From Flavobacteriaceae bacterium (GTDB lineage Bacteria; Bacteroidota; Bacteroidia; Flavobacteriales; Flavobacteriaceae), in contig OZ245049.1 of assembly GCA_965224465.1 (NCBI GenBank), forward strand, positions 4,560,001-4,592,000: a DNA stretch of 32,000 nt, given 5' to 3'. The position numbers and the translations under genes were made by a program. The notes beneath the pieces are model-generated. The model was not told where the DNA came from, did not search any database, and saw only the letters and a program-made list of their open reading frames with translations. Positions 1-31,668 of this stretch are shown in pieces; position 1 is the first letter of the stretch; the number at the start of each line of letters is the position of its first letter.

Positions 1-1383
1 CTTAAAAGAATGGTTTTCGGGTCTAAAAGCGAACGTTTTATCCCTGTTGACACAAATCAATTGTCGCTTTTCGGAAAAATAATAGCTGAGAAAGAAGAGG
101 CATACAAAAAACATATTGTAATCTACGAAAGAAAACAAAAGAAGAAAGGAGAGAAAAAACCTGTTCGCTCTTCTATACCTGCGCATTTTCCGCGAGTAGA
201 AGAGATTATAGAGCCTAAGCACATAGAAGAAGGAGCTGTAAAAATAGGAGAAGAAGTTACAGAACTTTTAGAAATAACGCCTCTTTCCGTTTTTGTAAGA
301 CGAATTGTAAGACCTAAATATGCACTTCCGGAAGAAAAAGGCGTTGTTATAGCAGAATTACCAAGCTTACCGATACCTAAAGGAAATGCATCAGCAAGTT
401 TATTGGCCTTTATACTTATTTCAAAATTTGTAGACCATTTACCACTTTACAGATTAATTCAAATTTTTAAACGACAAGATTTAAAAGTAAGTAAATCAAC
501 AATTGGAGGATGGGTATCTAAAAGTTCGGAGCTTATCGCTCCTTTATACGATACATTTAAGGCTCAGTTTTTAGAAAATGCCAATTATATTCAAGCAGAC
601 GAATCTCCTATAAAGGTTTTAGATAAAGACAAGAAAAAATCAACACACAGAGGGTATATGTGGGTGTATCGAAATCCTGTTAAAAATTTAGTTCTTTTTG
701 AATACAATAAAGGGAGAGGAAAAGTTGTTCCAGAAGAGTTTTTTAAAGATTTCAATGGGACACTACAGTCCGATGGGTATGCTGCATACCAAAACTTAAC
801 AACAAAAGGAGAAATTACTCTTTTAGGTTGCATGGCTCATGCTAGGCGGTATTTTGAGAAGGCGCTGGATAATGATCCTAAAAGAGCGGATGTTGTTTTG
901 TTGGAAATTCAAAAGCTATACAAGATAGAACGTAAAATAAAAGAACAAGAATTAACTATTGAGCAAACTAAAGCATATAGAGAAAAACATGCATCACCTG
1001 TTTTAGACGGAATAGAAATTTATCTTACAAAAGAGCGAAAAAACGTACTGCCTAAAAGTGCCATAGGAAAAGCAATTGCTTATACTCTTAAAATATGGCA
1101 AAACCTAAAACTATACATCGATGATGGCAGGTTTGAAATAGACAACAATAATATAGAAAATGCCATAAGACCTTTAGCTATTGGCAGAAAAAATTATCTC
1201 TTTGCTGGCAGTCATGAGTCCGCACAAAACATAGCTCTATTTTATAGCTTTTTTGCTACTTGCAAAAAGAATAACGTAAACCCACATACGTGGCTATGTG
1301 ATGTCCTTAATAGATTACCAGAACATAAGGCTAATAAACTTTCGGAGTTACTGCCTCAAAATTGGAAGCCTGTTGATAAATAA
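1..1383 (+). CDS. IS66-family DDE transposase (TnpC-like), 5' end cut by the window edge
   Basis: The frame is open from nt 1 (LKR precedes the listed Met). Conserved IS66 motifs are present: FGSKSERF, IQADESPIKVL, LQSDGYAAY, CMAHARRYF, IDNNNIENAIRPLAIGRKNYLFAGS. Confidence 0.9.
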   Translation, partial: LKRMVFGSKSERFIPVDTNQLSLFGKIIAEKEEAYKKHIVIYERKQKKKGEKKPVRSSIPAHFPRVEEIIEPKHIEEGAVKIGEEVTELLEITPLSVFVRRIVRPKYALPEEKGVVIAELPSLPIPKGNASASLLAFILISKFVDHLPLYRLIQIFKRQDLKVSKSTIGGWVSKSSELIAPLYDTFKAQFLENANYIQADESPIKVLDKDKKKSTHRGYMWVYRNPVKNLVLFEYNKGRGKVVPEEFFKDFNGTLQSDGYAAYQNLTTKGEITLLGCMAHARRYFEKALDNDPKRADVVLLEIQKLYKIERKIKEQELTIEQTKAYREKHASPVLDGIEIYLTKERKNVLPKSAIGKAIAYTLKIWQNLKLYIDDGRFEIDNNNIENAIRPLAIGRKNYLFAGSHESAQNIALFYSFFATCKKNNVNPHTWLCDVLNRLPEHKANKLSELLPQNWKPVDK

Positions 1384-1411: not shown

Positions 1412-2248
1412 CATAAAAAATACGCAATGAATATACCAAAAAAACAATATTTTCTAAACTTTGAGTTATTTATGTCTTATGAAATATATATAAATGACAT
1501 GAAAATAGCAAATAACATTCAATCTGGACCAGTATCTGGATTACGATATTTGAATGATTACATTCTGAATTCGGGAAAACAAACAATAACATTAATTGAC
1601 CGTGATTTAAAACCTAATTCTAATATGCCAAATGATATATTTAAAAAAATAAGTTTAGAAATTTATAGTGCAGATGAAAATGATGAAAACACAAAGTTGG
1701 AAAAGAAGTTTGATTTCCCTGATATACCAACTCCAAGACCATATTATTATAAAAACACATGGGAGTTTGATGCTGAAGTTCCTTACACCGTAGACGGATG
1801 GAAAGATGGGCAAGATTTATCAAAAATAGATCAAAAAGAGTTGAAGAAAATGGTGGTAGCGAAATTTCAACACTTAAGAACAATTTTAAATCAAGGAAAA
1901 GTAGATCAATTTATGGAAGAAAACGCCAAAGGATATAAGGAATTTGTTATTACCAACTATTATCAAAAAAAATGGCATGAATTTGACGAAAACATTAGAG
2001 AAACTATAGGTAATCAAAAGGGAATTATGCTTCCTTTAGAGCATTATAAAATGAAAATAGTTGCAAATGGTCAATTGGTAACCTTAGAAAGAATTAACCT
2101 CCCTTATAAAGGACAAAGTGCATTGTTAGCAATCAATGAAAAATAAAATACGATATACACTGATTATATTCATTTATATATGCCAAAAGGAAAAACAAGC
2201 TTAGAGCCAATACGTCTGAATATAGAATATGAGGTTGCTCATTTTTAA
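1412..2248 (+). pseudogene. Family-B lipoprotein paralog, 5'-truncated by the IS66 insertion and carrying a premature TAA
   Basis: Matches intact 307-aa copies from residue ~31 (HKKYAMNIPKKQYF...), so the signal peptide and lipobox are missing. At 2144-2146 TAA replaces the GAA seen in the 22471 copy (aatgaaaaaTaaaatacg versus aatgaaaaaGaaaatacg). The same frame continues to the normal end ...EYEVAHF with stop at 2246-2248. The N-terminus of listed ORF 1298..2146 simply reads through the IS end. Confidence 0.85.
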
Positions 2249-2471
2249 AAACAACAACTTTACAACAGATTAATCATCAATGATAAAAAGGCTGCTATCT
2301 GGTTTAAGAATTCAAAAACGAGAGGAACATCCTGGCAGCCTGTTTATACCAAATACATTTCCAAGAGACGGTTTAGAAATGGAATTATTTTTTGTTTTAC
2401 TCTCGTTCTGTTTTTTAACAACGCTAGCACGTAAAACAACCTATTTATATCGGTTATTTTGGATTGTAATT
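2249..2471 (+). repeat. Unit-boundary sequence, the same DNA that heads every orphan cassette, with a ~50-nt extra segment
   Basis: 2249-2393 matches the sequence after each family-B stop (e.g. 23395-23540). 2394-2445 is extra. 2446-2471 (tatatcggttattttggattgtaatt) matches again, then diverges into unique DNA. It contains a degenerate out-of-frame relic of a family-A 3' end: ggctgctatctggtttaagaattcaaaaacgagaggaacatcctggcagcctgtttata versus gctgctatctggtttgagaatccagaaacgggagggacatcctggcagcctgtttata. Confidence 0.7.
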
Positions 2472-2990: not shown

Positions 2991-4757
2991 ATGGCATTAC
3001 AAAGCATCACTTCTATTTGGATAGGATCAACAGAGATATCCTATTTTAAATCATTAGAATTACATCAAAATATAAAAGACCATCACCACCTAAAATTAGT
3101 TTGTCGCATGGATGTTTTAGAGGGTTTTGAAGAAGAACAAGCAAAGAGCAGCAAGGATTTTTTAGGTCAGGTTATCAGCTTAGAAATAAGTCCCTCTATA
3201 GGGTTTGAAGGCGCCAAAGAACTCCTTTTTAAAGGGGTTGTAACGGGCGTGCAAAGCATAAAGGGCTTTGAGGCAGGTGATGGCGATGAAGTGATTATTA
3301 GCGCAAAGAGTCCTACTGTTTTAGCTAGCGATGGCGCACATTTCACTTCGTACAACGATGTTTCTTTGTCTGATATTATATACGATAATTTTCAGCTTTA
3401 CGACACCTCAAAGCTATCCGTTTTAACACGCTTACAAAACGACCCTACCATACATTATTCGGTACAGCACAACGAAAGTTCTTTTGCCTATGCAAGTAGG
3501 TTAGCGGCTATGCATGGAGAATGGATGTACTACGATGGAATCCAATTGGTCTTTGGAAAACCAGATCAAACAGAAGTTGCATTAACCTACGGATTTGATT
3601 TAAAAGAATACGAGTTAAAGCTAGAGCCACAATCTAGTAATTACACCTATTTTGCAAACGATTATTTAACAGACCAGGTATATGAGCAATCGGCAGCTAA
3701 TATAAATACAGGACTGCGAGGATATGGCGATTTTGTATCAGGTAAATCCGCACATCTATTCCATAAGGAAACTAAAATTTGGCATAATTTACACAACAGT
3801 CCACAAACGCAACAACGCTTAGACAGGGCTACAGAAATACAAATAAAAGCGATTGCTTTACAACAAGTAATTGTCCGTGTCACAAGCGACAATACAGGGG
3901 TAAAACTGGGAGGTATTGTAACAATAGAAGGCAATAAATACAGGGTTGTAAAAATTACACATACCAATACAGAAACAGGCGAATACCTCAATAAATTTGA
4001 AGCCATTACCACAGATATAAATACATATCCGTATACAGATATAAACGCATTTCCAAAAAGTAAAAGTCAAACAGCTGTTGTAAAACACAACGATGATCCC
4101 GATGGTTTAGGGCGTGTAAAAGTACAGTTTGTTTGGCAAAAAATCACAGGAGAAATAAGTCCATGGATACGAATGGTACAGCCACATGGGGGAGCAGATA
4201 AGGGCTTTTATTTTATTCCAGAAATAAACGAAGAAGTATTGGTAGGTTTTGAAGGTGGGAATGCAGAGTATCCCTATGTCCTTGGGAGTCTCTACAATGG
4301 AAGTCAAGGTGCAGGTGCTTTTCAATCAAAAAACAACGATATTAAAGCGATTAAAACCCGTAGCGGACATACTATTGAGTTTAATGATAAAGAGGGTGCA
4401 GAAAGCATTACTATAAAAGATAAAAAGAATAATAGTGTTTTTATTGATACCGCAAATAATAATATAACGATATCGGCAAATGAAACAATGACTTTTAAAG
4501 CTAAAAACATTGAGATTAACACTACAGAAAATCTAAATATATTTGTAGGAAAGGACAAAAACGAAAGCATTGCAAAAAAACAAACTTTAACAGCAAAAAA
4601 CAGCACCATCTTAATTGAAGAAAAAGCAGAAATTCAAGCTAAAGAGTATCTTAAAAATGCGCAAAAAATAACAATAAATAGTACCAAAGAAAACCTAGAA
4701 CTTTCAAGTGCGAAACAAGTAGTGAGTAATAGTGCTGAAAAAAATATTTTAAGTTAA
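2991..4757 (+). CDS. vgrG: VgrG/TssI-like T6SS spike protein (588 aa)
   Basis: gp5-like OB-fold signature: GRVKVQFVWQ...WIRMVQPHGGADKGFYFIPEINEEVLVGFEGGNAEYPYVLGSLYNG. This is followed by beta-helix-like repeats (IKTRSGHTIEFNDKEGAESITIKDKKNNSVFIDTANNNITISANETMTFKAKNIEINTTENLNIFVG). The N-terminal half has gp27/phage late control D-like length. Confidence 0.9.
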   Translation: MALQSITSIWIGSTEISYFKSLELHQNIKDHHHLKLVCRMDVLEGFEEEQAKSSKDFLGQVISLEISPSIGFEGAKELLFKGVVTGVQSIKGFEAGDGDEVIISAKSPTVLASDGAHFTSYNDVSLSDIIYDNFQLYDTSKLSVLTRLQNDPTIHYSVQHNESSFAYASRLAAMHGEWMYYDGIQLVFGKPDQTEVALTYGFDLKEYELKLEPQSSNYTYFANDYLTDQVYEQSAANINTGLRGYGDFVSGKSAHLFHKETKIWHNLHNSPQTQQRLDRATEIQIKAIALQQVIVRVTSDNTGVKLGGIVTIEGNKYRVVKITHTNTETGEYLNKFEAITTDINTYPYTDINAFPKSKSQTAVVKHNDDPDGLGRVKVQFVWQKITGEISPWIRMVQPHGGADKGFYFIPEINEEVLVGFEGGNAEYPYVLGSLYNGSQGAGAFQSKNNDIKAIKTRSGHTIEFNDKEGAESITIKDKKNNSVFIDTANNNITISANETMTFKAKNIEINTTENLNIFVGKDKNESIAKKQTLTAKNSTILIEEKAEIQAKEYLKNAQKITINSTKENLELSSAKQVVSNSAEKNILS

Positions 4758-4761
4758 GTGT

Positions 4762-5706
4762 ATGTTTGATTTTATAACAGACACAGAACGTAACGAGAAG
4801 GCTTTTAAAAACAATGACCTTAATTTGGACGGTCGTGACACTTTAAATATTCGCCCCATAATTGGGGTACATACCTATGCGGTCTCTATAAAACATCTGG
4901 ATGCTGAAACCGAAAAACGACTTGACTATACAATAACTGTTGAATTTTTAGAGACCAATGATAAACTAGAATATCTTTTTAGAATTGATAAATCAAATTT
5001 TTTTATCAATCAAAAACAACCATCTCTAATTATAGAACAGTTAAGTTGCGAAATAGCCAAAAGCTTTTACCCTATTGAGGTTTTAACAAATTATAAAGGA
5101 AAAATCATCGAAGTAACTAATATAACATCTATTAAAAACAAATGGGAAACGCAACGGATTAAGTTACAAAAAGAATACAAAGGAGCGGTAATTACAACTA
5201 TTATAAAACATATAGATCAGAAAGTAAACAGCCTATCTGAAATTGAAAATTCTTTAAATATAGACCTGTTTTTTAACCTGTTTTTTGCTGGGAATTATGT
5301 CAGTTACAATACGCTTCTTACAATACCTCATAAAATGATATTTGCCTATGATCCCAATAAGACACCTGTTGTTTTTGAAGGGACAAATACATTAAACCCT
5401 ATGCGTACAGAGCAAAGTACAATTGAAGTACGCTTTAAGGGAGAAAATAAGCAACCTACAAAAGAAGCATTTTTAGAAGTGGATTATGATTTTGACTACA
5501 AAACGCGTATGCCTGTATGGATACATTCTACTTGTGTTATAAATGACGTAAAAAATAAAAGCCTCCAAAAAAACATTGAAATACAGATTGTGTTAGAGAA
5601 ACAAAAAAAAGAAATAAAAAATGTTCTCTTAGATCAAGATGATGAAGATACTAAACGAGCAATAAAAAACAAAAAAAAATGGTTTCACGTTTTACATAAA
5701 TCTTAA
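4762..5706 (+). CDS. Hypothetical protein (314 aa), possible VgrG/effector accessory or adaptor
   Basis: Long ORF starting 4 nt after the vgrG stop and ending 4 nt before the next ATG. No signal peptide and no motif I recognise. The adaptor role is inferred from position only. Confidence 0.7.
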   Translation: MFDFITDTERNEKAFKNNDLNLDGRDTLNIRPIIGVHTYAVSIKHLDAETEKRLDYTITVEFLETNDKLEYLFRIDKSNFFINQKQPSLIIEQLSCEIAKSFYPIEVLTNYKGKIIEVTNITSIKNKWETQRIKLQKEYKGAVITTIIKHIDQKVNSLSEIENSLNIDLFFNLFFAGNYVSYNTLLTIPHKMIFAYDPNKTPVVFEGTNTLNPMRTEQSTIEVRFKGENKQPTKEAFLEVDYDFDYKTRMPVWIHSTCVINDVKNKSLQKNIEIQIVLEKQKKEIKNVLLDQDDEDTKRAIKNKKKWFHVLHKS

Positions 5707-5710
5707 TGTT

Positions 5711-6271
5711 ATGAGTCAAAAAAAATTAGTTTGCCATGGAGCACTTTGTAAATGTAAGTTTGGATTTACACCAGACACACTTGCCGTACTTACACAACAA
5801 AAAGTATATATAAACGACCATAGCGGAAGTCAAAAACTTGTGGCAACCAATAAAGATATAGGCATGCCTTTTCAGGCAAAAACTTTTGGACAATGTAAGT
5901 TACAACCTACTTCTACTAGTTATTTACCTTGTATTCCTAGCATTACTGCTTGGGATGGTTTCCATGAGAAGACACAGATAAAAAGCAATCAAGGTGCTCC
6001 TCTGCTAGAAGACAGTAAAGCTACTTGTGCAATAGCAGGTGCTCCCTGTGTAGAAATAGTATTTCATGGACAAACTGGAAGCCCCTCAGTACAAAACTTA
6101 GAGAATACAGACGATGAAATTATAAGTCAAGTTGTTCCTATCCTATCAGTAAAAGAAATTAAAAACCCGTCTCCTTATCATTGTATAAGCGTTACAGTGC
6201 AAGACAATGGTTCTGAAGAAAAAAAAGGAAAGGTAAAGCGAGGAATTCTCCAAAAACTCCATTTAAAATAA
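5711..6271 (+). CDS. DUF4280 (PAAR-like) domain protein with a ~65-aa C-terminal extension
   Basis: Cys/Gly pattern typical of DUF4280: VCHGALCKCKFGFTP...FGQCKL...YLPCIPSITAWDG...GAPLLEDSKATCAIAGAPCVEIVFHGQ. Located directly downstream of vgrG. Confidence 0.75.
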   Translation: MSQKKLVCHGALCKCKFGFTPDTLAVLTQQKVYINDHSGSQKLVATNKDIGMPFQAKTFGQCKLQPTSTSYLPCIPSITAWDGFHEKTQIKSNQGAPLLEDSKATCAIAGAPCVEIVFHGQTGSPSVQNLENTDDEIISQVVPILSVKEIKNPSPYHCISVTVQDNGSEEKKGKVKRGILQKLHLK

Positions 6272-6444
6272 TGGGAGCATGTTTGTATTATAAAAGGAAA
6301 TTCAAAAATATTGTTTTTGACACAGCCCTTACTACGAGTCTTAACACTAGGGGGGTAGGTATTTTCTATACAAAAATGGATGCCTCTTCGGGTAAATTAA
6401 CTCAAAACATGTACATCTTACAGGTACCAAAAAATCAGCACTAA
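6271..6444 (+). CDS. Possible small ORF (57 aa, MGACLYYKRKFKNIVFDTALTTSLNTRGVGIFYTKMDASSGKLTQNMYILQVPKNQH)
   Basis: Hand translation. Its ATG overlaps the DUF4280 stop (TAATG) and its stop lies 5 nt before the effector ATG. It therefore fills the only gap in an otherwise 4-nt-spaced operon. It is below the size cutoff of the supplied ORF track and has no recognisable motif. Confidence 0.3.
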   Translation: MGACLYYKRKFKNIVFDTALTTSLNTRGVGIFYTKMDASSGKLTQNMYILQVPKNQH

Positions 6445-6449
6445 AAAAC

Positions 6450-9407
6450 ATGAAAAAAGTGAAACCAGAAACTGTTAAAACCAAAGCAGTAGATATAATC
6501 CGTATTGGATCGGACGCCTCTCTATATACAATAAAAACAGGTGGAAAAAAGAGTTTTTCAGTTAAAAATAATAGTATCAAGTCTCAGAAATGGATAAATA
6601 TTTCTATGGAATATTTAGAAGAAGCTAAAAATATAGATCCCATGGTTGTTTTCCCCAAATGGAGGAACTGGCCGAACAAAGCAGATAAAAAACCAATAAA
6701 TAAATTTGGTATAGGAAAGCAATACGCAAAAGCAAGTACCGTTACACTTACAGTTGGTCTAGATAAACAGAACGAAGGTAAGGTTTATTATATTGAACAC
6801 TTCATCGATCAACCTACTCTTATAACAGGGGATTACATAGCTATTATTGACGAGCCTAAAATTTTATCTGCTTATTTTGCACGTTATAAAGATGAATTTT
6901 TATACCCAAATGAGACTAAAGGAAGCAGTGTTTTTACCTACAAAGGAAGTGTACAACTGTATATTTTAGGGCATCTTTTGCCAAATTATACGGTTTCATT
7001 TCATAATTTTGCGCTATTTGAAATTGATATTTATGATGATCTGAACAACAAAGTAACAAAAAAACCTTTGCGGTATTTTCAAAGAACAAGAATCAATGAG
7101 TTTACGGTAAATACATTAACATCTGTTACTATCTTTATAGATGAAGCTTGGAGAGGAGAAAGTAAACAAAAAGAAAAAGTAAAAACATATCATGCTACAA
7201 TAAAAACAACTTTATACGCCAATAAAGATTCTTTTACAGGTAAAGAAGTGGACTATGTAAGAGAAGGATTAATTATTAATGATAAAGAAAATCGTAATAG
7301 CAATAATTTTACAAACAAATTTAAAAGCGTTGCTCCTAACGGAGAGGTAATTGGAGTCACTTATACAAGCGAAGATGAAATGATTAGCAATAGTGGTTAC
7401 GGGAGACATGTACAATATGGTATAGATAACGCTCGTAAATACACCAAAACTGCTTTAAAAGAGATATACGATACAAAAAATAATGGTTTTGTCCTGGAAG
7501 GGCAGCAAGTATCTTTTCAGGTAAAAGATGATACGATGGATGTGATATTAGAGAAATACGAAGCGGGAAAAAATAATATGTTGGCTGTTGTAGGTGATGT
7601 AGAATACAGCTCAAAAGAAACAGGATCTTGTAAATTCTCTAAATTACAAATAGAACATAAAAGTAGAAAGAAACCATTTGTACTTTTTGACGAAGAGAAG
7701 ACGACTCAAAAACCAATAGACCATACCAATTTAGCCTTTTCCATTATAGCAGCAACAAAGAAAGAAACGATTAAGATTACAGCCATTGGCTTAGCCATAC
7801 AAAACTATCAAGATAAAGGAGAACGAAAACCAAAATGTTATGGTATTACCACCGCAAAAAAGATAAAAGAAGGCATTCTGACGGATAAAAAAATAAAACA
7901 TAAAAGACAATTAGATTTTAAGCACAACTCCATTAAAGATGTGTTTCCTATGGAAGACGCTTATATATTATACCCAGATGCTATAAGTAATGTATCTACT
8001 GCTATTGTAGAGACAGACGGTACAGGTACAATTAATATAGAAGAACAAAACCTCGAATACACCTATCTCAAAAATGGTATAGAACTAAAGGTTGGGTATT
8101 TTTACAATAAGACTTTTGATACTTCTGTAGAAAAAATAATTGGACTAAAAATAGGAGAATGGACGAATGATTTTATTGATAAAGCTTGGATTTTAAGATA
8201 CTTTTTACTCAGAGATAATCAAGCACAAACCTATTTTATCCCTGTTGGAACTTGTAGGTACCCGAATCAAACCGTTGTCATAAAAATATATCCAGACATA
8301 AATTGGTCTATTTCATTTTCTTTTGGGAAGGTAGATCCAAAACATAAAGAAGATTGGCAAAGTGGCTTGTCCGAAAAAAAAGCAGCACTAATAAATAAGT
8401 ATAAAGAAGAAATATCCGAAACAAAAGCAGCACTAATAAATAAGTGTAAAGAAGTAATTTTTAGAAGTAAACAGCTCTCCGTAGAAGAAAAGAAAAAAAA
8501 AGAAGTATTAAAAAAAATCAACTTCTCACTTGGTATAGCCGCTGCTTATGGTACAAATAAAATTAATTTAACACCTGATTTAGGTAAAAAAATACATGAC
8601 CTAATATATGAGTTTGCCAAAGCCAAAAACTTAATTGATTCTATAAGTGGAAATTCTGTTAGTAAAGAAAAACAAAATTCATTATACAAAAATCGGATAA
8701 AAAATCTTGGTGGAAAATGGATGAAAAAACTAGACAAACTACCTGTTACCATAACAGTGTATCAACCCAGTTTTTCAGCTGGTTTTGCATGGGGTAGGAA
8801 AACATTGGAATCACAAACAAATTGCAATGCTCCTATAACATATGATGTGTTTTTAAAAGCAGATCCTTTATTTAAAATGGAAGGAAGCCTAGATTTAATT
8901 ACCTGTGCTACTTTTATGCCTGTTATTGGACAGGTAATAAAAGTAGTTGATATTGTATTAAATGTTGCTGGAATAGAGCCTGTATTGAAGCTTACTGCCA
9001 TGGGGGAAATTAAATTATCACTAATAGGTACAATAAAAGTTGACGGCGACACCAATGAGAAAAAACTAGAAACTAAAATGAGTGCAGGACTCAAAATGAC
9101 TATAGAAGCAAGTATTACTATAGGAGATGGACTGGTAGGATTTATGTTTGCTGGTGGTGATATTATTGGCACTGTGACAAAGAAGACCTATACCGCCTAT
9201 GCGGAAACAGGATTTGAATTAAACCTATCCACTGGCGTTACGGCTCATAAAGGCCCCTATGTAGGAGTGAAACTAGAATTCCTAGGTCTTATTGCTGCAG
9301 GGAAATTAGAAACAAAAATCAACAAAAAGGGAGAGGCTTCCGAAGAACCTTTTAAGTATATTATTATAGAGAAAACTACTTTTATAGATAAAACTTTTTA
9401 CTTTTAA
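6450..9407 (+). CDS. Putative T6SS effector (985 aa): unknown N-terminal ~630 aa, Lys/Glu-rich hinge, unknown beta-rich/Gly-rich C-terminal domain
   Basis: Largest ORF, last in the vgrG-DUF4280 operon, followed 4 nt later by a lipoprotein gene. Its C-terminal third (from 8356) is the segment duplicated five times downstream. The hinge holds a direct repeat aaagcagcactaataaataagt at 8379-8400 and 8414-8435 (KAALINK x2). Confidence 0.8.
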   Translation: MKKVKPETVKTKAVDIIRIGSDASLYTIKTGGKKSFSVKNNSIKSQKWINISMEYLEEAKNIDPMVVFPKWRNWPNKADKKPINKFGIGKQYAKASTVTLTVGLDKQNEGKVYYIEHFIDQPTLITGDYIAIIDEPKILSAYFARYKDEFLYPNETKGSSVFTYKGSVQLYILGHLLPNYTVSFHNFALFEIDIYDDLNNKVTKKPLRYFQRTRINEFTVNTLTSVTIFIDEAWRGESKQKEKVKTYHATIKTTLYANKDSFTGKEVDYVREGLIINDKENRNSNNFTNKFKSVAPNGEVIGVTYTSEDEMISNSGYGRHVQYGIDNARKYTKTALKEIYDTKNNGFVLEGQQVSFQVKDDTMDVILEKYEAGKNNMLAVVGDVEYSSKETGSCKFSKLQIEHKSRKKPFVLFDEEKTTQKPIDHTNLAFSIIAATKKETIKITAIGLAIQNYQDKGERKPKCYGITTAKKIKEGILTDKKIKHKRQLDFKHNSIKDVFPMEDAYILYPDAISNVSTAIVETDGTGTINIEEQNLEYTYLKNGIELKVGYFYNKTFDTSVEKIIGLKIGEWTNDFIDKAWILRYFLLRDNQAQTYFIPVGTCRYPNQTVVIKIYPDINWSISFSFGKVDPKHKEDWQSGLSEKKAALINKYKEEISETKAALINKCKEVIFRSKQLSVEEKKKKEVLKKINFSLGIAAAYGTNKINLTPDLGKKIHDLIYEFAKAKNLIDSISGNSVSKEKQNSLYKNRIKNLGGKWMKKLDKLPVTITVYQPSFSAGFAWGRKTLESQTNCNAPITYDVFLKADPLFKMEGSLDLITCATFMPVIGQVIKVVDIVLNVAGIEPVLKLTAMGEIKLSLIGTIKVDGDTNEKKLETKMSAGLKMTIEASITIGDGLVGFMFAGGDIIGTVTKKTYTAYAETGFELNLSTGVTAHKGPYVGVKLEFLGLIAAGKLETKINKKGEASEEPFKYIIIEKTTFIDKTFYF

Positions 9408-9411
9408 AATT

Positions 9412-10356
<945 letters not shown>

Positions 10357-10367
10357 TAAAAGAAAGT

Positions 10368-11270
10368 ATGAATAGAATTTTATTGATTTCGTGGGGCTGT
10401 ATTTTTTTCTGTTGTTCAGTGTATGGACAACAGAAAAAAAACATGAATACCCAAACCAGCCAACAGAACAATTACCCGTATAAAAACGACAGCCGACCTG
10501 GTTATTATTTACAAATAAATAATCAGAATTGTTATTACGAATTGAGAATTAATGATTTTAATGGGGGTAAATATTTTGATATGTACCCATCATATTCAGT
10601 ACGAATCCCCTTAAATTTACGAATATTAAAAAGTGGAAAACAAAATATTTCCCTAAAAATAGTTCCTTATAAAGGTGACACCCTGTCTCCAAAAGCCAAC
10701 CTACAAATGCGTTTGATAAAATATGCAGACATGACAGATTTAGAAAACGAATATGGAGGAAGTACCGTATTGTGGAACTGGGAAATGCCAGATATTGAGA
10801 ATCAAAAACTACCCTTATTTGTTTATGATACTGTATTTAATGCAGAGGTGCCCTATACAATTAATACACTTGACACCAAGGCAGTTGATTTATCTAAAAT
10901 AGACAAAGACATACTGCTAGAGAAAGTACTTACAGAATTTACTAGAATAAGAGCATCTGTTATTAATAAAACACAAGATAAAAAAGATTTAATAAGGGGG
11001 ATAAGACGTCCGCTTATTCAGTTATATAAGGGAGAAAAACTTAAAGACGAGGTGATTGATGGTATGATAAATCTTGGAGACGGAAAAGAACCGCAACCCT
11101 TAGAAAATTTTGAAATGCACTTGTATTATCACAATAGAATTGTAACTCTTCTAAAAAAAGTTGATAAAGAGTCTGCTATCTGGTTTGAGAATCCAGAAAC
11201 GGGAGGGACATCCTGGCAGCCTGTTTATATATACATAGATAAGGTTACTGGGAAATGGGTGCGATGGTAA
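10368..11270 (+). CDS. Family-A paralog, MNRILL leader form (300 aa from the internal ATG)
   Basis: I prefer the ATG at 10368 (MNRILLISWGCIFFCCSVYGQQKK, a signal-peptide-like start 11 nt after the previous stop) over the listed 10341 start, which overlaps the previous gene. Patch 1 is RINDFNGGKYFDMYPSYSVRIP and patch 2 is KKDLIRGIRRPL. Confidence 0.8.
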   Translation: MNRILLISWGCIFFCCSVYGQQKKNMNTQTSQQNNYPYKNDSRPGYYLQINNQNCYYELRINDFNGGKYFDMYPSYSVRIPLNLRILKSGKQNISLKIVPYKGDTLSPKANLQMRLIKYADMTDLENEYGGSTVLWNWEMPDIENQKLPLFVYDTVFNAEVPYTINTLDTKAVDLSKIDKDILLEKVLTEFTRIRASVINKTQDKKDLIRGIRRPLIQLYKGEKLKDEVIDGMINLGDGKEPQPLENFEMHLYYHNRIVTLLKKVDKESAIWFENPETGGTSWQPVYIYIDKVTGKWVRW

Positions 11271-11281
11271 TAAAAGAAAGT

Positions 11282-12184
11282 ATGAATAGAATTTTATTGA
11301 TTTCGTGGGGCTGTATTTTTTTCTGTTGTTCAGTGTATGGACAACAGAAAAAAAACATGAACACCCAAACCAGCCAACAGAACAATTACCCGTATAAAAA
11401 CGACAGCCGACCTGGTTATTATTTACAAATAAATAATCAGAATTGTTATTACGAACTGAGAATTAATGATTTTAATGGAGGTAATTATTTTGGTATGTAC
11501 CCATCATATTCAGTACGGATCCCTTTAAATTTACGAATATTAAAAAGTGGAAAACAAAGTCTTTCTTTAAAAATAGTTCCTTATAAAGGTGATACCCTGT
11601 CTCCCAAAGCCAACCTACAAATGCGTTTGATAAAATATGCAGACATGACAGATTTAGAAAACGAATATGGAGGAAGTACTGTATTGTGGAGCTGGGAAAT
11701 GCCAGATATTGAGAATCAAAAATTACCCTTATTTGTTTATGATACTGTATTTAATGCAGAAGTGCCCTATACACTTGATAGACTTGACACCAAGGCAGTT
11801 GATTTATCTAAAATAGACAAAGACATACTGCTAGAGAAAGTACTTACAGAATTTACTAGGATAAGAGCATCTATTATTAATAAAACACAAGACAAAGAAG
11901 CTTTATGTGATTTTATAGATTGTGCACTTATACAATTATACAAAGGAGAAAAACTTAAAGACGAGGTGATTGATGGTATGATAAATCTTGGAGATGGAAA
12001 AGAACCACAACCCTTAGAGAATTTTGAAATGCGCATGTATTATCACAATAGAATTGTAACTCTGGTTAGGAAAGTTAATAAAAGGTCTGCTATCTGGTTT
12101 GAGAATCCAGAAACAGGAGGGACATCCTGGCAGCCTGTTAATCTATACATAGATAAGGTTACTGGGAAATGGGTGCGATGGTAA
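11282..12184 (+). CDS. Family-A paralog, MNRILL leader form
   Basis: 914-bp tandem period. Patch 1 is RINDFNGGNYFGMYPSYSVRIP and patch 2 is CDFIDCAL. The tail reads QPVNLYID. Confidence 0.8.
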   Translation: MNRILLISWGCIFFCCSVYGQQKKNMNTQTSQQNNYPYKNDSRPGYYLQINNQNCYYELRINDFNGGNYFGMYPSYSVRIPLNLRILKSGKQSLSLKIVPYKGDTLSPKANLQMRLIKYADMTDLENEYGGSTVLWSWEMPDIENQKLPLFVYDTVFNAEVPYTLDRLDTKAVDLSKIDKDILLEKVLTEFTRIRASIINKTQDKEALCDFIDCALIQLYKGEKLKDEVIDGMINLGDGKEPQPLENFEMRMYYHNRIVTLVRKVNKRSAIWFENPETGGTSWQPVNLYIDKVTGKWVRW

Positions 12185-12195
12185 TAAAAGAAAGT

Positions 12196-13098
12196 ATGAA
12201 TAGAATTTTATTGATTTCGTGGGGCTGTATTTTTTTCTGTTGTTCAGTGTATGGACAACAGAAAAAAAACATGAACACCCAAACCAGCCAACAGAACAAT
12301 TACCCGTATAAAAACGACAGCCGACCTGGTTATTATTTACAAATAAATAATCAGAATTGTTATTACGAACTGGATACAAATGGTTTAAGTAGTGCAGAGT
12401 ATTATGGCGAATACCCTGCTTATTCAACAAGAATACCTCTAAATCTTCATATCTTAAAAAGTGGAAAACAAAGTCTTTCCTTAAAAATAGTTCCTTATAA
12501 AGGTGACACCCTGTCTCCAAAAGCCAACCTACAAATGCGTTTGATAAAATATGCAGACATGACAGATTTAGAAAACGAATATGGAGGAAGTACCGTATTG
12601 TGGAACTGGGAAATGCCAGATATTGAGAATCAAAAACTACCCTTATTTGTTTATGATACTGTATTTAGAGCAGAGATGCCCTATACAATTAATACACTTG
12701 ACACCAAGGCAGTTGATTTATCTAAAATAGACAAAGACATACTGCTAGAGAAAGTACTTACAGAATTTACTAGAATAAGAGCAACTATTATTAATAAAAC
12801 ACAAGACAAAGAAGCTTTATCTAAAGCTATAAAACGCCCACTTATACAATTATACAAAGGGAAAAAACTTAAAGACGAGGTGATTGATGGTATGATAAAT
12901 CTTGGAGATGGAAAAGAACCACAACCCTTAGAGAATTTTGAAATGCGCATGTATTATCACAATAGAATTGTAACTCTGGTTAGGAAAGTTAATAAAAGGG
13001 CTGCTATCTGGTTTGAGAATCCAGAAACGGGAGGGACATCCTGGCAGCCTGTTTATATATACATAGATAAGGTTACTGGGAAATGGGTGCGATGGTAA
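12196..13098 (+). CDS. Family-A paralog, MNRILL leader form
   Basis: 914-bp tandem period. Patch 1 is DTNGLSSAEYYGEYPAYSTRIP and patch 2 is SKAIKRPL. Confidence 0.8.
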   Translation: MNRILLISWGCIFFCCSVYGQQKKNMNTQTSQQNNYPYKNDSRPGYYLQINNQNCYYELDTNGLSSAEYYGEYPAYSTRIPLNLHILKSGKQSLSLKIVPYKGDTLSPKANLQMRLIKYADMTDLENEYGGSTVLWNWEMPDIENQKLPLFVYDTVFRAEMPYTINTLDTKAVDLSKIDKDILLEKVLTEFTRIRATIINKTQDKEALSKAIKRPLIQLYKGKKLKDEVIDGMINLGDGKEPQPLENFEMRMYYHNRIVTLVRKVNKRAAIWFENPETGGTSWQPVYIYIDKVTGKWVRW

Positions 13099-13309: not shown

Positions 13310-14242
13310 ATGAAAGCACAAAAACACCTCATACTAAGCATTGCAATGCTAGTACTTGTTAATTGTAAAGGACAAGAAAGTAAAAAAACAAACGATCATA
13401 AAAAATACGCAATGAATATACCAAAAAAACAATATTTCCTGAACTATGAGCTATTTATGTCTTATGAATTATATATAAATGATGTAAAATTAACCAATTA
13501 CATTCAATTGGGACCAGTATCTGGTATGGAGTATTTGAATGATTACATTCTGAATTCGGGAAAACAAACAATAACATTAATTGACCGTGATTTAAAACCT
13601 AATTCTAATATGCCAAATGATATATTTAAAAAAATAAGTTTAGCAATTTATAGTGCAGATGAAAATGATGAAAACACAAAGTTGGAAAAGAAGTTTGATT
13701 TCCCTGATATACCAACTCCAATACCATATTATTATAAAAACACATGGGAGTTTGATGCCGAAGTTCCCTACACAATAGATGGATGGAAAGATGGACAAGA
13801 TTTATCAAAAATAGATCAAAAAGAGTTGGAAAAAATGGTGGTAGCTAAATTTCAACACTTAAGAACAATTTTAAATCAAGGAAAAGTGGATCAATTTATG
13901 GAAGAAAACGCCAAAGGATATAAGGAATTTGTTATTGCCAACTATTATCAAAAAAAATGGCATGAATTTGACGAAAATATTAGAGAATTAGTAGAAGATC
14001 AAGAAGGTTTTATGCTTCCTTTAGAGGATTATAAAATGAAAGTAGTTGCAAATGGTCAATTGGTAACCTTGGAAAGAATTAACCTTCCTTATAAAGGACA
14101 AAGTGCATTATTAGCAATCGATGAAAAAGAGAATACGATATACACTGATTATATTCATTTATATATGCCAAAAGGAAAAACAAGCTTAGAGCCAATACGT
14201 CTGAATATAGAATATGAGGTTGCTGATTTTTCAAAAAAATAA
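13310..14242 (+). CDS. Family-B lipoprotein (310 aa), distant paralog of family A; putative immunity-type protein
   Basis: Leader MKAQKHLILSIAMLVLVNC (Cys19). It shares blocks with family A: FDAEVPYTIDGWKDGQDLSKIDQKELEKMV versus FNAEVPYTINTLDTKAVDLSKIDKDILLEKV, and ILNSGKQTITL versus ILKSGTQSLSL. This copy ends ...EVADFSKK. Confidence 0.85.
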   Translation: MKAQKHLILSIAMLVLVNCKGQESKKTNDHKKYAMNIPKKQYFLNYELFMSYELYINDVKLTNYIQLGPVSGMEYLNDYILNSGKQTITLIDRDLKPNSNMPNDIFKKISLAIYSADENDENTKLEKKFDFPDIPTPIPYYYKNTWEFDAEVPYTIDGWKDGQDLSKIDQKELEKMVVAKFQHLRTILNQGKVDQFMEENAKGYKEFVIANYYQKKWHEFDENIRELVEDQEGFMLPLEDYKMKVVANGQLVTLERINLPYKGQSALLAIDEKENTIYTDYIHLYMPKGKTSLEPIRLNIEYEVADFSKK

Positions 14243-14264
14243 TTTTACAACATATTAATCATCA

Positions 14265-15365
14265 ATGATAAAAGGGCTGCTATCTGGTTTAAGAATTCAA
14301 AAACGGGAGGGACATCCTGGCAGCCTGTTTATACCAAATACATTTCCAAGAGACGGTTTAGAAATGGAATTATTTTTTATATCGGTCATTTTGGATTGTA
14401 ATTGGTATCATATATACATAGATAAGGTTAAAGGGCAAAGTGGCTTGTCCGAAAAAAAAGAAGTATTAAAAAAAATCAACTTCTCACTTGGTATAGCCGC
14501 TGCTTATGGTACAAATAAAATTAATTTAACACCTGATTTAGGTAAAAAAATACATGACCTAATATATGAGTTTGCCAAAGCCAAAAACTTAATTGATTCT
14601 ATAAGTGGAAATTCTGTTAGTAAAGAAAAACAAAATTCATTATACAAAAATCGGATAAAAAATCTTGGTGGAAAATGGATGAAAAAACTAGACAAACTAC
14701 CTGTTACCATAACAGTGTATCAACCCAGTTTTTCAGCTGGTTTTGCATGGGGTAGGAAAACATTGGAATCACAAACAAATTGCAATGCTCCTATAACATA
14801 TGATGTGTTTTTAAAAGCAGATCCTTTATTTAAAATGGAAGGAAGCCTAGATTTAATTACCTGTGCTACTTTTATGCCTGTTATTGGACAGGTAATAAAA
14901 GTAGTTGATATTGTATTAAATGTTGCTGGAATAGAGCCTGTATTGAAGCTTACTGCCATGGGGGAAATTAAATTATCACTAATAGGTACAATAAAAGTTG
15001 ACGGCGACACCAATGAGAAAAAACTAGAAACTAAAATGAGTGCAGGACTCAAAATGACTATAGAAGCAAGTATTACTATAGGAGATGGACTGGTAGGATT
15101 TATGTTTGCCGGTGGTGATATTATTGGTGCTGTGACAAAAAACACCTATACCGCCTATGCGGAAACAGGATTTGAATTAAACCTATCCACTGGCGTTACG
15201 GCTCATAAAGGCCCCTATGTAGGAGTGAAACTAGAATTCCTAGGTCTTATTGCTGCAGGAAAAAAAGAAACAAAAATGGTTCAATTTGGAGGGGGGGCCG
15301 AAGAACTATTTAAGTATGTTATTATAAATAAAACTACTTTTATAGACAAAACTTTTTACTTTTAA
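14265..15365 (+). CDS. Orphan effector C-terminal cassette 1 (open 366-codon ORF)
   Basis: From 14434 onward it is near-identical to effector 8356-9407, minus an in-frame 120-nt segment. The first ~56 codons derive from boundary DNA, so a real N-terminus is doubtful. The tail patch is MVQFGGGA. Confidence 0.6.
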   Translation: MIKGLLSGLRIQKREGHPGSLFIPNTFPRDGLEMELFFISVILDCNWYHIYIDKVKGQSGLSEKKEVLKKINFSLGIAAAYGTNKINLTPDLGKKIHDLIYEFAKAKNLIDSISGNSVSKEKQNSLYKNRIKNLGGKWMKKLDKLPVTITVYQPSFSAGFAWGRKTLESQTNCNAPITYDVFLKADPLFKMEGSLDLITCATFMPVIGQVIKVVDIVLNVAGIEPVLKLTAMGEIKLSLIGTIKVDGDTNEKKLETKMSAGLKMTIEASITIGDGLVGFMFAGGDIIGAVTKNTYTAYAETGFELNLSTGVTAHKGPYVGVKLEFLGLIAAGKKETKMVQFGGGAEELFKYVIINKTTFIDKTFYF

Positions 15366-15369
15366 AATT

Positions 15370-16314
<945 letters not shown>

Positions 16315-16325
16315 TAAAAGAAAGT

Positions 16326-17228
16326 ATGAATAGAATTTTATTGATTTCGTGGGGCTGTATTTTTTTCTGTTGTTCAGTGTATGGACAACAGAAAAAAAAC
16401 ATGAATACCCAAACCAGCCAACAGAACAATTACCCGTATAAAAACGATAGCCGACCTGGTTATTATTTACAAATAAATAATCAGAATTGTTATTACGAAC
16501 TGGATATAAATGGCTTAAGCAGTACAGAGTATTATGGTGAATATCCTGCTTATTCAACAAGAATACCTCTAAATCTTCAAATATTAAAAAGTGGAACACA
16601 AAGTCTTTCCTTAAAAATAGTTCCTTATAAAGGTGATACCCTGTCTCCAAAAGCCAACCTGCAAATGCGTTTGATAAAATATGCAGACATGACAGATTTA
16701 GAAAACGAATATGGAGGAAGTACCGTATTGTGGAACTGGGAAATGCCAGATATTGAGAACCAAAAACTACCCTTATTTGTTTATGATACTGTATTTAAAG
16801 CGGAGGTGCCATATTCAATTAATACACTTGACACCAAGGCAGTTGATTTATCTAAAATAGACAAAGACATACTGCTAGAGAAAGTACTTACAGAATTTAC
16901 TAGGATTAGAGCATCTGTTATTAATAAAACACAAGACAAAGAAGCTTTATGTAATTTTATAGATTGTGCACTTATACAATTATACAAAGGAGAAAAGCTT
17001 AAAGACGAGGTGGTTGATGGTATGATAAATCTTGGAGACGGAAAAGAACCGCAACCCTTAGAGAATTTTGAAATGCGCTTGTATTATCACAATAGAATTG
17101 TAACTCTGGTTAGAAAAGTTAATAAAAGGTCTGCTATTTGGTTTGAGAATCCAGAAACGGGAGGGACATCCTGGCAGCCTGTTTATATATACATAGATAA
17201 GGTTACTGGGAAATGGGTGCGGTGGTAA
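16326..17228 (+). CDS. Family-A paralog, MNRILL leader form
   Basis: Patch 1 is DINGLSSTEYYGEYPAYSTRIP and patch 2 is CNFIDCAL. This is the same mature-region combination as the poly-Gln copy at 9412. Confidence 0.8.
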   Translation: MNRILLISWGCIFFCCSVYGQQKKNMNTQTSQQNNYPYKNDSRPGYYLQINNQNCYYELDINGLSSTEYYGEYPAYSTRIPLNLQILKSGTQSLSLKIVPYKGDTLSPKANLQMRLIKYADMTDLENEYGGSTVLWNWEMPDIENQKLPLFVYDTVFKAEVPYSINTLDTKAVDLSKIDKDILLEKVLTEFTRIRASVINKTQDKEALCNFIDCALIQLYKGEKLKDEVVDGMINLGDGKEPQPLENFEMRLYYHNRIVTLVRKVNKRSAIWFENPETGGTSWQPVYIYIDKVTGKWVRW

Positions 17229-17442: not shown

Positions 17443-18366
17443 ATGAAAGCACAAAAACACCTCATACTAAGCATTGCAATGCTAGTACTTGTTAATTGTA
17501 AAGGACAAGAAAGTAAAAAAACAAACGATCATAAAAAATACGCAATGAATATACCAAAAAAACAATATTTCCTGAACTATGAGCTATTTATGTCTTATGA
17601 AATATATATAAATGACATGAAAATAGCAAATAACATTCAATCTGGACCAGTATCTGGATTACGATATTTGAACGATTATATTTTGAATTCGGGAAAACAA
17701 ACAATAACATTAATTGACCGTGATTTAGAACCTGATTCTAATATAGCAAATGATATATTTAAAAAAATAAGTTTAGAAATTTATAGTGCAGATGAAAATG
17801 ATGAAAACACAAAGTTGGAAAAGAAGTTTGATTTCCCTGATATACCAACTCCAAGACCATATTATTATAAAAACACATGGGAGTTTGATGTTGAAGTTCC
17901 TTACACCGTAGACGGATGGAAAGATGGGCAAGATTTATCAAAAATAGATCAAAAAGAGTTGAAGAAAATGGTGGTAGCGAAATTTCAACACTTAAGAACA
18001 ATTTTAAATCAAGGAAAAGTAGATCAATTTATGGAAGAAAACGCCAAAGGATATAAGGAATTTGTTATTACCAACTATTATCAAAAAAAATGGCATGAAT
18101 TTGACGAAAACATTAGAGAAACTATAGGTAATCAAAAGGGAATTATGCTTCCTTTAGAGCATTATAAAATGAAAATAGTTGCAAATGGTCAATTGGTAAC
18201 CTTAGAAAGAATTAACCTCCCTTATAAAGGACAAAGTGCATTGTTAGCAATCAATGAAAAAATAAACAGGCTATACACTGATTATATTCATTTATATATG
18301 CCAAAAGGAAAAACAAGCTTAGAGCCAATACGTCTAAATATAGAATATGATCTTGCTCATTTTTAA
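17443..18366 (+). CDS. Family-B lipoprotein (307 aa)
   Basis: Variant with YEIYINDMKIANNIQSGPVSGLRY, EPDSNIAND, INEKINRLYTDY and tail EYDLAHF. Confidence 0.85.
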   Translation: MKAQKHLILSIAMLVLVNCKGQESKKTNDHKKYAMNIPKKQYFLNYELFMSYEIYINDMKIANNIQSGPVSGLRYLNDYILNSGKQTITLIDRDLEPDSNIANDIFKKISLEIYSADENDENTKLEKKFDFPDIPTPRPYYYKNTWEFDVEVPYTVDGWKDGQDLSKIDQKELKKMVVAKFQHLRTILNQGKVDQFMEENAKGYKEFVITNYYQKKWHEFDENIRETIGNQKGIMLPLEHYKMKIVANGQLVTLERINLPYKGQSALLAINEKINRLYTDYIHLYMPKGKTSLEPIRLNIEYDLAHF

Positions 18367-18397
18367 AAACAACAACTTTACAACAGATTAATCATCA

Positions 18398-19497
18398 ATG
18401 ATAAAAAGGCTGCTATCTGGTTTAAGAATTCAAAAACGAGAGGAACATCCTGGCAGCCTGTTTATACTTAATACATTTCCAAGAGACGGTTTAGAAATGG
18501 AATTATTTTTTATATCGGTCATTTTGGATTGTAATTGGTATCATATATACATAGATAAGGTTAAAGGGCAAAGTGGCTTGTCCGAAAAAAAAGAAGTATT
18601 AAAAAAAATCAACTTCTCACTTGGTATAGCCGCTGCTTATGGTACAAATAAAATTAATTTAACACCTGATTTAGGTAAAAAATACATGACCTAATATATG
18701 AGTTTGCCAAAGCCAAAAACTTAATTGATTCTATAAGTGGAAATTCTGTTAGTAAAGAAAAACAAAATTCATTATACAAAAATCGGATAAAAAATCTTGG
18801 TGGAAAATGGATGAAAAAACTAGACAAACTACCTGTTACCATAACAGTGTATCAACCCAGTTTTTCAGCTGGTTTTGCATGGGGTAGGAAAACATTGGAA
18901 TCACAAACAAATTGCAATGCTCCTATAACATATGATGTGTTTTTAAAAGCAGATCCTTTATTTAAAATGGAAGGAAGCCTAGATTTAATTACCTGTGCTA
19001 CTTTTATGCCTGTTATTGGACAGGTAATAAAAGTAGTTGATATTGTATTAAATGTTGCTGGAATAGAGCCTGTATTGAAGCTTACTGCCATGGGGGAAAT
19101 TAAATTATCACTAATAGGTACAATAAAAGTTGACGGCGACACCAATGAGAAAAAACTAGAAACTAAAATGAGTGCAGGACTCAAAATGACTATAGAAGCA
19201 AGTATTACTATAGGAGATGGACTGGTAGGATTTATGTTTGCCGGTGGTGATATTATTGGTGCTGTGACAAAAAACACCTATACCGCCTATGCGGAAACAG
19301 GATTTGAATTAAACCTATCCACTGGCGTTACGGCTCATAAAGGTCCCTATGTAGGAGTGAAACTAGAATTCCTAGGTCTTATTGCCGCAGGGAAATTAGA
19401 AACAAAAATGGATGAATATGGAGGGACTTCCGAAGAACTATTTAAGTATGTTATTATAGAGAAAACTACTTTTATAGATAAAACTTTTTACTTTTAA
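18398..19497 (+). pseudogene. Orphan effector C-terminal cassette 2, frameshifted
   Basis: The A run at 18677-18682 has 6 A, whereas the other copies have 7 (ggtaaaaaaatacatgacc). This splits the ORF into 18398..18694 and 18811..19497. The tail patch is MDEYGGTS. Confidence 0.8.
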
Positions 19498-19501
19498 AAT
19501 T

Positions 19502-20428
<927 letters not shown>

Positions 20429-20439
20429 TAAAAGAAAGT

Positions 20440-21342: not shown

Positions 21343-21353
21343 TAAAAGAAAGT

Positions 21354-22256: not shown

Positions 22257-22470
22257 TAAAAAAAGTTAAAATTTGATTACCCACGGTATTTTACATAGAG
22301 TCTGATTTTTCGACGGATTTTTATTTTTCAGGAGTCACCATTTTTGTTAAATTTCAAGGAGGGAGAAAAAAAGAGGGTAAAGCAGACTCTACTTTTCACA
22401 TAATCGACGATTTAAGCACTTCTTTTGATATTTTAAAAAAGAAAGGAGAATTCAAATAAAATAATAAAAA

Positions 22471-23394: not shown

Positions 23395-23425
23395 AAACAA
23401 CAACTTTACAACAGATTAATCATCA

Positions 23426-25451: not shown

Positions 25452-25462
25452 TAAAAGAAAGT

Positions 25463-26365: not shown

Positions 26366-26376
26366 TAAAAGAAAGT

Positions 26377-27279: not shown

Positions 27280-27490
27280 TAAAAAAAGTTAAAATTTGAT
27301 TACCCACGGTATTTTACATAGAGTCTGATTTTTCGACGGATTTTTATTTTTCAGGAGTCACCATTTTTGTTAAATTTCAAGGAGGGAGAAAGAAAAAGGA
27401 TAAACCCTCTACTTTTTCCATAATCGACGATTTAAGCACTTCTTTTGATATTTTAAAAAAGAAAGGAGAATTCAAATAAAATAATAAAAA

Positions 27491-28414: not shown

Positions 28415-28445
28415 AAACAACAACTTTACAACAGATTAATCATCA

Positions 28446-29550: not shown

Positions 29551-30501
<951 letters not shown>

Positions 30502-31637: not shown

Positions 31638-31668
31638 AAACAACAACTTTACAACAGATTAATCATCA

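Follow-up and report, generated by a model that had tools for sequence, protein, structure and literature searches.

Why should eight neighbouring codons near the end of a predicted toxin gene differ sharply between copies that are otherwise almost the same? The question is raised by a stretch of 32,000 nucleotides (nt) from a Flavobacteriaceae bacterium (contig OZ245049.1, positions 4,560,001 to 4,592,000), in the following called the window. The window appears to be a cargo locus of a type VI secretion system (T6SS), with an Aquimarina-like bacterium as its source. It contains a full-length effector gene with a C-terminal tail, the predicted toxin domain, and downstream of it 13 family A and 5 family B lipoprotein genes, four orphan copies of the tail and the start of a fifth. 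The lipoproteins are presumed to be immunity proteins. An earlier note, made from the sequence alone, had described an eight-codon hypervariable patch in the tails and taken it for a specificity determinant. We compared the tails and the lipoprotein genes with each other and with those of related bacteria. Our preferred reading, for which we consider the chances a little better than even, is that the patch encodes a family-wide hypervariable hairpin loop with old, recombining alleles, which decides which A lipoprotein neutralises the toxin.

The five tails, i.e. that of the full-length effector copy and those of the orphan tail cassettes 1 to 4 (c1–c4), were aligned without gaps from the stop codon, which provides 10 pairs. 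The shared tail comprises 303 residues (8496–9404) rather than the approximately 340 that had been given before; ahead of it, across a gap of ~117 nt, 8 codons (QSGLSEKK) match as well. Identity of the copies begins at 8496 (c1, c3, c4) or at 8587 (c2), and all variation of the tail is confined to its last ~255 nt. Of the 33 variable columns there, 16 belong to the 24-nt patch. Such clustering was reached in none of 100,000 permutations of a scan statistic (p<1e-5). Apart from the pair c2 and c4, which share one allele, the copies differ at 7–12 of the 24 patch positions, with a proportion of nonsynonymous differences (pN) of 0.33–0.54. For the 231 nt outside the patch, the proportion of synonymous differences (pS) is 0.02–0.13 and pN is 0–0.05; c3 and c4, for example, differ at 7 of 24 positions in the patch and at 2 in the 231-nt flank. 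The same domain is found in all tails (97–100% identity outside the patch), and the patch is a real, non-random hotspot set in homogenised sequence. The earlier description of the patch agrees with these data in the translations (INKKGEAS in the full-length copy, MVQFGGGA in c1, MDEYGGTS in c2 and c4, AGRYGGAS in c3), in its position, ending 21 codons ahead of the stop codon, in the linked changes EEPF/EELF/EESF and GTVTKK/GAVTKN, and in the different family A variant that follows each tail.

The patch alleles are distributed as a mosaic over the copies. MDEYGGTS occurs in four different flanking backgrounds among the tails of this genome, and c2 and c4 are identical across 9255–9347 while differing on both sides. 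Within the source genome, which encodes at least eight distinct tail-bearing proteins, differing patch alleles agree at only 1–4 of 8 residues while the remaining tail is 97–100% identical. Compared with Aquimarina longa, 2–5 of 8 patch residues agree and the remaining tail is 80% identical. The same genome holds a further allele, IDKFGGTS, and the patch differences fit a pattern, xxx[YFL]GGx[ST], of other species. In metagenomes the exact 23-nt left flank of the patch had no match, and a profile search for close alleles returned only two already-known contigs.

An independent view of the hotspot is provided by Tenacibaculum maritimum, in which homologous effectors of 969–975 amino acids (aa) are encoded downstream of VgrG and of a ClpB-type AAA+ ATPase gene; no orphan tails were found at these T. 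maritimum loci. Strains vary mainly in the loop that is homologous to the patch. This loop holds 28 of the 55 variable columns among 14 strain variants, which display at least 10 loop alleles including a 6-residue indel. For three complete loci the loop differs at 13–22 of 60 nt (22–37%, pS 0.31–0.61, pN 0.20–0.31), compared with 7–9 of 2847 nt (~0.3%, pS 0.5–1%) in the effector outside the loop. In T. finnmarkense the loop varies at 6 of 8 columns, with the variation being more spread out.

The genes next to the tails contain divergence islands of their own. At every locus examined, whether from Aquimarina, a metagenome or T. maritimum, the tail is directly followed by a family A homolog. Within the window, the 13 copies of family A are 89–95% identical overall but carry two sharp islands, A-I near mature residues 35–60 and A-II near residues 177–194. 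A sliding-window analysis of nucleotide diversity (pi) over the tail and the first A gene gave three peaks, at the tail patch (~0.25), A-I (~0.2–0.25) and A-II (~0.35), over a background of 0–0.08. The islands have pS values of 0.31–0.42 and pN values of 0.17–0.25, compared with 0.09 and 0.03 for the rest of the gene. Alleles of A-I and A-II combine differently among the A genes, and the pairwise homoplasy index (PHI) test detects recombination between them (p=0.0005). One A-I allele of the window is 92% identical to an A. longa allele, with 76% identity over the rest of the protein, whereas A paralogs of the same genome are 50% identical at A-I and 94% elsewhere. Three tandem A paralogs of A. 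longa differ at the same islands. In T. maritimum the effector is followed by 6–9 tandem A homologs with an invariant central part of ~135 residues and with mosaic islands at the regions equivalent to A-I and A-II and near the C-terminus; the first immunity gene has strain-specific island alleles in each of three strains. Since synonymous divergence is also raised in the islands, these are better described as old recombining alleles than as products of recent positive selection on point mutations. Together the sequences indicate that the flanks are under concerted evolution, while old allelic islands are retained and shuffled.

To locate the variable segments in the proteins, we used AlphaFold2 (AF2) models. 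For the tail, modelled from a 30-sequence alignment, the mean predicted local distance difference test score (pLDDT) was 63, with the C-terminal half being better. The model contains a hydrophobic helix (142–157), long amphipathic beta-hairpins and a glycine-rich loop (210–227), and the patch spans the turn between the strands 253–275 and 279–291. At this modest pLDDT, the long strands alternate hydrophobic and polar faces. By strand register, as read from the DSSP string, the minor variable residues 226, 230, 271 and 285 would adjoin the hairpin turn, such that the variable surface may be somewhat larger than eight residues. The family A model (pLDDT 85) places A-I in an N-terminal beta-sandwich and A-II on helix 180–191 of a helical/beta C-terminal part. 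A comparison of the tail fold with the PDB using Foldseek gave no significant match (best E=0.017, TM<0.2; the weak ones are pores and porins), and family A had no significant structural neighbour in the same database. Neither the effector nor families A and B matched any Pfam, NCBIfam, PADLOC or PDB sequence genuinely; Conotoxin and lipoprotein hits on A were discarded as spurious, coming from the signal peptide and the poly-Q region. By exhaustive profile search the tail family comprises 89 representative clusters, mostly forming the C-terminal ~300 residues of proteins of 750–1000 aa. The domain is also found alone and on other N-terminal regions, and all named members, from Cellulophaga, Zobellia and Tenacibaculum, are called 'hypothetical'. 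The N-terminal region of the window effector is 52–58% identical to Aquimarina orthologs. Since the proteins encoded downstream are lipoproteins and the hairpins are amphipathic, the tail may act on the periplasm or the membrane.

According to the preferred reading, the patch would encode the tip of a beta-hairpin and flanking residues near the C-terminus of a T6SS-delivered toxin domain of Flavobacteriaceae. Gene conversion among the at least five tail copies would keep the flanks identical, while distinct loop alleles would persist and move between backgrounds as small recombining units. The loop and its neighbouring residues would form the surface that chooses the family A immunity variant, and the A proteins would carry the matching surface in A-I and A-II, with mosaic arrays broadening the protection. 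Multiple loop alleles could be maintained by frequency-dependent selection. The orphan tails, each with its own A genes, may store alternative combinations of loop and immunity. They share tracts of 650–810 nt that are identical to the main effector gene, and across such 0.65–0.8 kb recombination could swap the loop allele plus an immunity gene. That the array is a working system of toxin loop variation, in which silent orphan donors replace the expressed loop and the linked immunity gene by homologous recombination in the fully identical tract upstream, is a further step that we regard as doubtful. If it were true, a lineage that swaps its loop could evade the immunity genes of its kin without losing its own protection, as a toxin counterpart of pilin-type antigenic variation, and the variable loop of the family and the mosaic immunity arrays would face each other in a frequency-dependent arms race.

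Several results weigh against the loop being an immunity-specificity surface. The ratio of nonsynonymous to synonymous substitution rates (dN/dS) is ~0.4 in A-I, ~0.8 in A-II and ~0.5–0.6 in the T. maritimum loop, and the value of ~1.3–3 for the window patch is based on only ~5 synonymous sites. Of the earlier suggestion of a specificity determinant under diversifying selection or patchy gene conversion, the gene conversion part is favoured by the mosaic alleles and by the recombination among the A genes, while a dN/dS above 1 was not shown. The PHI test on the five tails alone gave p=0.31, being underpowered with 12 informative sites. The A genes that follow c2 and c4 are unlike in A-I as well as in A-II although these cassettes have the same patch, and this speaks against a simple rule of one patch and one immunity. 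A strict one-to-one association of patch and immunity gene among the five pairs of the window was therefore dropped: the pairs are too few and c2 and c4 contradict it. Finally, the loop tolerates indels across the family and has a pLDDT of 55–65, as a weakly constrained loop would. Such a loop could also be a neutral, unconstrained hairpin tip, at which old divergence persists since recombination tracts stop at highly mismatched DNA. The high family-wide entropy at the patch position would agree with this explanation, as would the indels, the modest pLDDT, a synonymous divergence that is raised as much as the nonsynonymous one, and the c2/c4 mismatch. However, other family-variable loops of the tail (183–186, 194–196, 250–252) are invariant among the paralogs, and the ~100-fold local excess recurs in T. 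maritimum, where paralogous tails are absent and at least 10 alleles are found in 14 variants. Since transfer of the whole patch does occur, as for MDEYGGTS, drift should have removed neutral alleles. A neutral tip would furthermore not account for the parallel islands in the adjacent immunity genes, one of which is a trans-species allele, and we consider it unlikely.

Specificity of the loop for another partner, i.e. a receptor or membrane component of the target, oligomerisation or membrane insertion, or evasion of non-cognate defences of the prey, appears slightly less likely still. The tips of the hairpins in beta-hairpin pore formers point to the far side of the membrane, and the predicted long amphipathic hairpins with a glycine-rich hydrophobic loop in the C-terminal half of the tail would suit such a function, as would the pore-forming and barrel proteins among the Foldseek neighbours. 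These neighbours are, however, not significant, and another partner leaves the co-located islands of the immunity genes and the expansion of the mosaic array unexplained. Localised programmed mutagenesis, for example by a diversity-generating retroelement or another targeted hypermutation, would produce extreme local divergence that hits synonymous sites equally, as is expected of a codon-blind process. It was rejected as highly improbable: the open reading frames (ORFs) of the window include no reverse transcriptase or template repeat, and the spectrum of changes is mixed instead of adenine-specific (A>G 5, G>A 5, T>G 3, others). In addition, identical patch alleles recur in several copies and one A-I allele is conserved across species, which points to inherited alleles and not to de novo mutation. 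An assembly or sequencing artefact might be suspected in an array of ~5-kb near-identical units, in which c2 moreover has a frameshift in a homopolymer that is typical of long-read errors. Yet the patch differences are multi-nucleotide and in frame, they fit the pattern of other species, the same proteins are present in public databases, and the hotspot is seen again in independent T. maritimum genomes, such that an artefact is very improbable.

How does the locus compare to known systems? Orphan cassettes are known from polymorphic toxins such as Rhs, CdiA and T6SS effectors (Zhang et al. 2012, PMC3482391), and a sequential displacement has been described for V. cholerae (PMC5361080). As in those systems, the effector consists of a conserved N-terminal part and a C-terminal, here predicted, toxin domain, 3' fragments of the toxin gene lie behind the full-length gene and come with (here presumed) immunity genes of their own, such genes accumulate downstream, and the cassettes carry a homology tract to the main gene as a possible route of replacement. 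The difference, and what is new here, is that the cassettes encode the same toxin domain and differ mainly in one eight-residue, specificity-type loop instead of in the whole domain. In its logic the locus seems closest to the specificity of colicin DNases and their immunity proteins. The likeness lies in toxins that are near-identical save for a small hypervariable surface, in an adjacent gene for the (here presumed) immunity protein that combines conserved parts with a poorly conserved specificity region, and in divergence that is concentrated at the 3' end of the toxin gene and in the adjacent gene. Work by Riley has reportedly described clustered divergence in colicin immunity regions. The folds are unrelated, however, the toxin here is T6SS cargo rather than a released bacteriocin, and the presumed immunity protein is a lipoprotein, implying an extracytoplasmic target. 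Furthermore, multi-copy arrays with orphan tails occur in one chromosome, and what is seen here is the co-location of the divergence islands. That small variable subregions can set partner specificity has been established for colicin/pyocin DNases, for which recognition is 'dual' and involves a hypervariable exosite of the immunity protein (PMC4548480), and for the Proteus mirabilis pair IdsD–IdsE, in which variable regions set allele-restricted binding (PMC4471559). With the latter pair the locus shares short strain-specific variable regions inside an otherwise conserved T6SS-exported protein and its partner (PMC4471559). In contrast to the present locus, Ids has one copy per strain and serves as an identity signal, not as a toxin-immunity pair, and no sequence or fold relationship was found.

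A further parallel may be drawn to the conserved flanks around a hypervariable mini-cassette that moves between backgrounds, and to the arrangement of one complete expression gene with several 5'-truncated copies. Both are features of Neisseria pilE/pilS, where silent cassettes provide the antigenic variation of a surface antigen. Unlike pilS, each silent copy here is linked to its own immunity genes and the product is a predicted toxin; there is no sign here of an element dedicated to initiation, nor of conversion going on at high frequency. The orphan immunity arrays of Bacteroidales, an acquired interbacterial defence, are recombinase-associated and consist of unrelated immunity families (PMC12247911), whereas the window contains mosaic paralogs of one family beside their own effector; an immunity-only version is seen in Cellulophaga algicola.

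If the loop and the islands A-I and A-II are contact surfaces, the family offers a natural and compact record of how the specificity between toxin and immunity protein is encoded and diversifies, with ~8 toxin residues facing two short immunity segments and with dozens of natural alleles in near-isogenic backgrounds. Evolution of specificity in the style of colicins would then also be known for T6SS effectors in marine Flavobacteriaceae, among them the fish pathogen T. maritimum, and orphan cassettes would be able to store fine-scale specificity variants instead of whole alternative toxins. The predicted toxin domain and the presumed immunity family are both unannotated and suited to structural and functional work.

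Table 1. Coordinates of the features discussed, in window positions.
Feature	Position	Strand	Remarks
IS66-family transposase	10–1383	+	Pfam DDE_Tnp_IS66, E=1e-93
Family B gene, 5'-truncated, with copy of the 'orphan leader', upstream of vgrG	1412–2393	+	94–98% identity to the B plus leader segments before orphan tails
VgrG spike protein	2991–4757	+	Pfam Phage_base_V (1e-23), Phage_GPD; TIGR01646
Conserved 314-aa protein, possible adaptor	4762–5706	+	no Pfam match; between VgrG and DUF4280 in L005, L006, L001, L008
DUF4280 (PAAR-like) protein	5711–6271	+	Pfam PF14107, E=4.5e-18
Full-length effector, 985 aa: ~680-aa conserved N-terminal region and 303-aa C-terminal predicted toxin tail	6450–9407	+	
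Tract with zero differences across the five tails	8589–9149	+	0/561 nt in all 10 pairs; homogenised, putative recombination substrate
Hypervariable patch, allele INKKGEAS	9318–9341	+	tail residues 275–282; beta-hairpin turn in AF2 model
First family A lipoprotein, presumed cognate immunity, (CAA)n poly-Q tether	9412–10356	+	signal peptide, lipobox; AF2 pLDDT 85
Island A-I	9627–9722	+	pi 0.2–0.25 vs background 0–0.08; pS 0.42, pN 0.17; trans-species allele
Island A-II	10071–10118	+	pi 0.33–0.37; five alleles among first-A genes; helix 180–191 and preceding loop
Three further family A paralogs	10341–11270, 11255–12184, 12169–13098 (10341–13098)	+	16-nt overlapping starts; mosaic A-I/A-II
Family B lipoprotein, presumed orphan immunity	13310–14242	+	32% identical to protein after divergent-tail effector in L001
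Orphan tail cassette 1, patch MVQFGGGA 15276–15299	14265–15365	+	leader is remnant of A-gene 3' end
Cassette 1 A, A, B genes	15370–16314, 16299–17228, 17443–18366	+	
Orphan tail cassette 2, frameshifted, patch MDEYGGTS 19408–19431	18398–19497	+	
Cassette 2 A, A, A, B genes	19502–23394	+	
Orphan tail cassette 3, patch AGRYGGAS 24437–24460	23426–24526	+	
Cassette 3 A, A, A, B genes	24531–28414	+	
Orphan tail cassette 4, patch MDEYGGTS 29457–29480	28446–29546	+	identical to database protein P0001
Cassette 4 A and B genes	29551–31637	+	
Fifth orphan tail, start only, runs past window end	31669–32000	+	same leader and ORF

All genes of the window lie on the + strand (Table 1). VgrG and a DUF4280 protein are encoded directly upstream of the effector, and this synteny is kept in relatives, the closest ones with the same gene order being A. 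longa, A. sp. RZ0, A. muelleri and an uncultured Aquimarina. The arrangement suggests delivery of the effector by a T6SS; no structural T6SS genes were found within the window. The DUF4280 protein is here 186 aa long and followed by a 179-nt gap before the effector (5711–6449). In A. longa, A. sp. RZ0 and the uncultured Aquimarina it has 453–457 aa, with an extra gene for 346–386 aa before the effector, and the short form is also found in A. muelleri, T. maritimum and one metagenome contig. At the left end, upstream of the vgrG operon, a family B gene has been cut short by the insertion of the IS66 transposase, with B homology beginning at 1412; the array therefore formerly reached to the left of vgrG. 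A second long effector copy lies outside the window in the same genome. It seems to be split into products of 285 aa and 487 aa (P0134, P0139), probably by an insertion between the residues ...DAYIL and YPDAIS..., and carries the patch allele IDKFGGTS.

The first A gene after each tail contains a perfect (CAA)n-CAG microsatellite encoding a poly-Q tether past the lipobox cysteine, with repeat numbers of 10–20 (9466–9519, 15424–15477, 19556–19591, 24585–24614 and 29605–29664). The other A paralogs of the window are without it. At every A-A junction the ATG and the preceding stop overlap within 16 nt (e.g. 10341–10356), as they do in T. maritimum (L013–L015). That this overlap is kept between Aquimarina and Tenacibaculum suggests translational coupling or a fixed recombination register. 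In another Aquimarina, a tail with 30% identity is followed by a protein that resembles family B, which is probably, as judged from this similarity, orphan immunity for a sister toxin class.

Every orphan tail starts with a shared leader, a remnant of a family A 3' end (14268–14333 matches 12992–13057 at 63 of 66 nt), which is fused at a microhomology to the effector codons QSGLSEKK. An ATG-initiated frame is open through the leader in all five orphan copies. The leader is located at 14243–14460, 18377–18593, 23405–23621, 28425–28641 and 31648–31864, and also at 2257–2393, its first ~136 nt being present upstream of vgrG as well. In c2 a poly-A run has lost 1 nt (A6 at 18677–18682 vs A7 at 8586–8592), a frameshift that leaves 228 codons in frame. 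The deletion lies within 18668–18688 (compare 8577–8598), and the other five copies have A7. Behind it could be a sequencing error in the homopolymer, a tract prone to slippage or a real pseudogene; as the source genome has two distinct 228-aa products (P0135, P0140), more than one copy seems to be frameshifted.

Among the relatives examined, the two orphan tails that were seen (L001, L002) belong to a tail class different from that of the main effector, so a difference in the patch only appears unusual. In Cellulophaga algicola DSM 14237 (CP002453, L011/L012), ~15 tandem lipoprotein genes of the A/B superfamily, broken by an IS1595 transposase, lie beside a DUF4280-effector operon. This is an immunity-gene island only, in which no orphan tails were found. 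The orphan tail of the uncultured Aquimarina (P0002, L001 10001–11065) matches through about residue 214 with 63% identity, and its last ~60 residues resemble the C-terminus of family B, such that P0002 appears to be a toxin-immunity fusion made by deletion.

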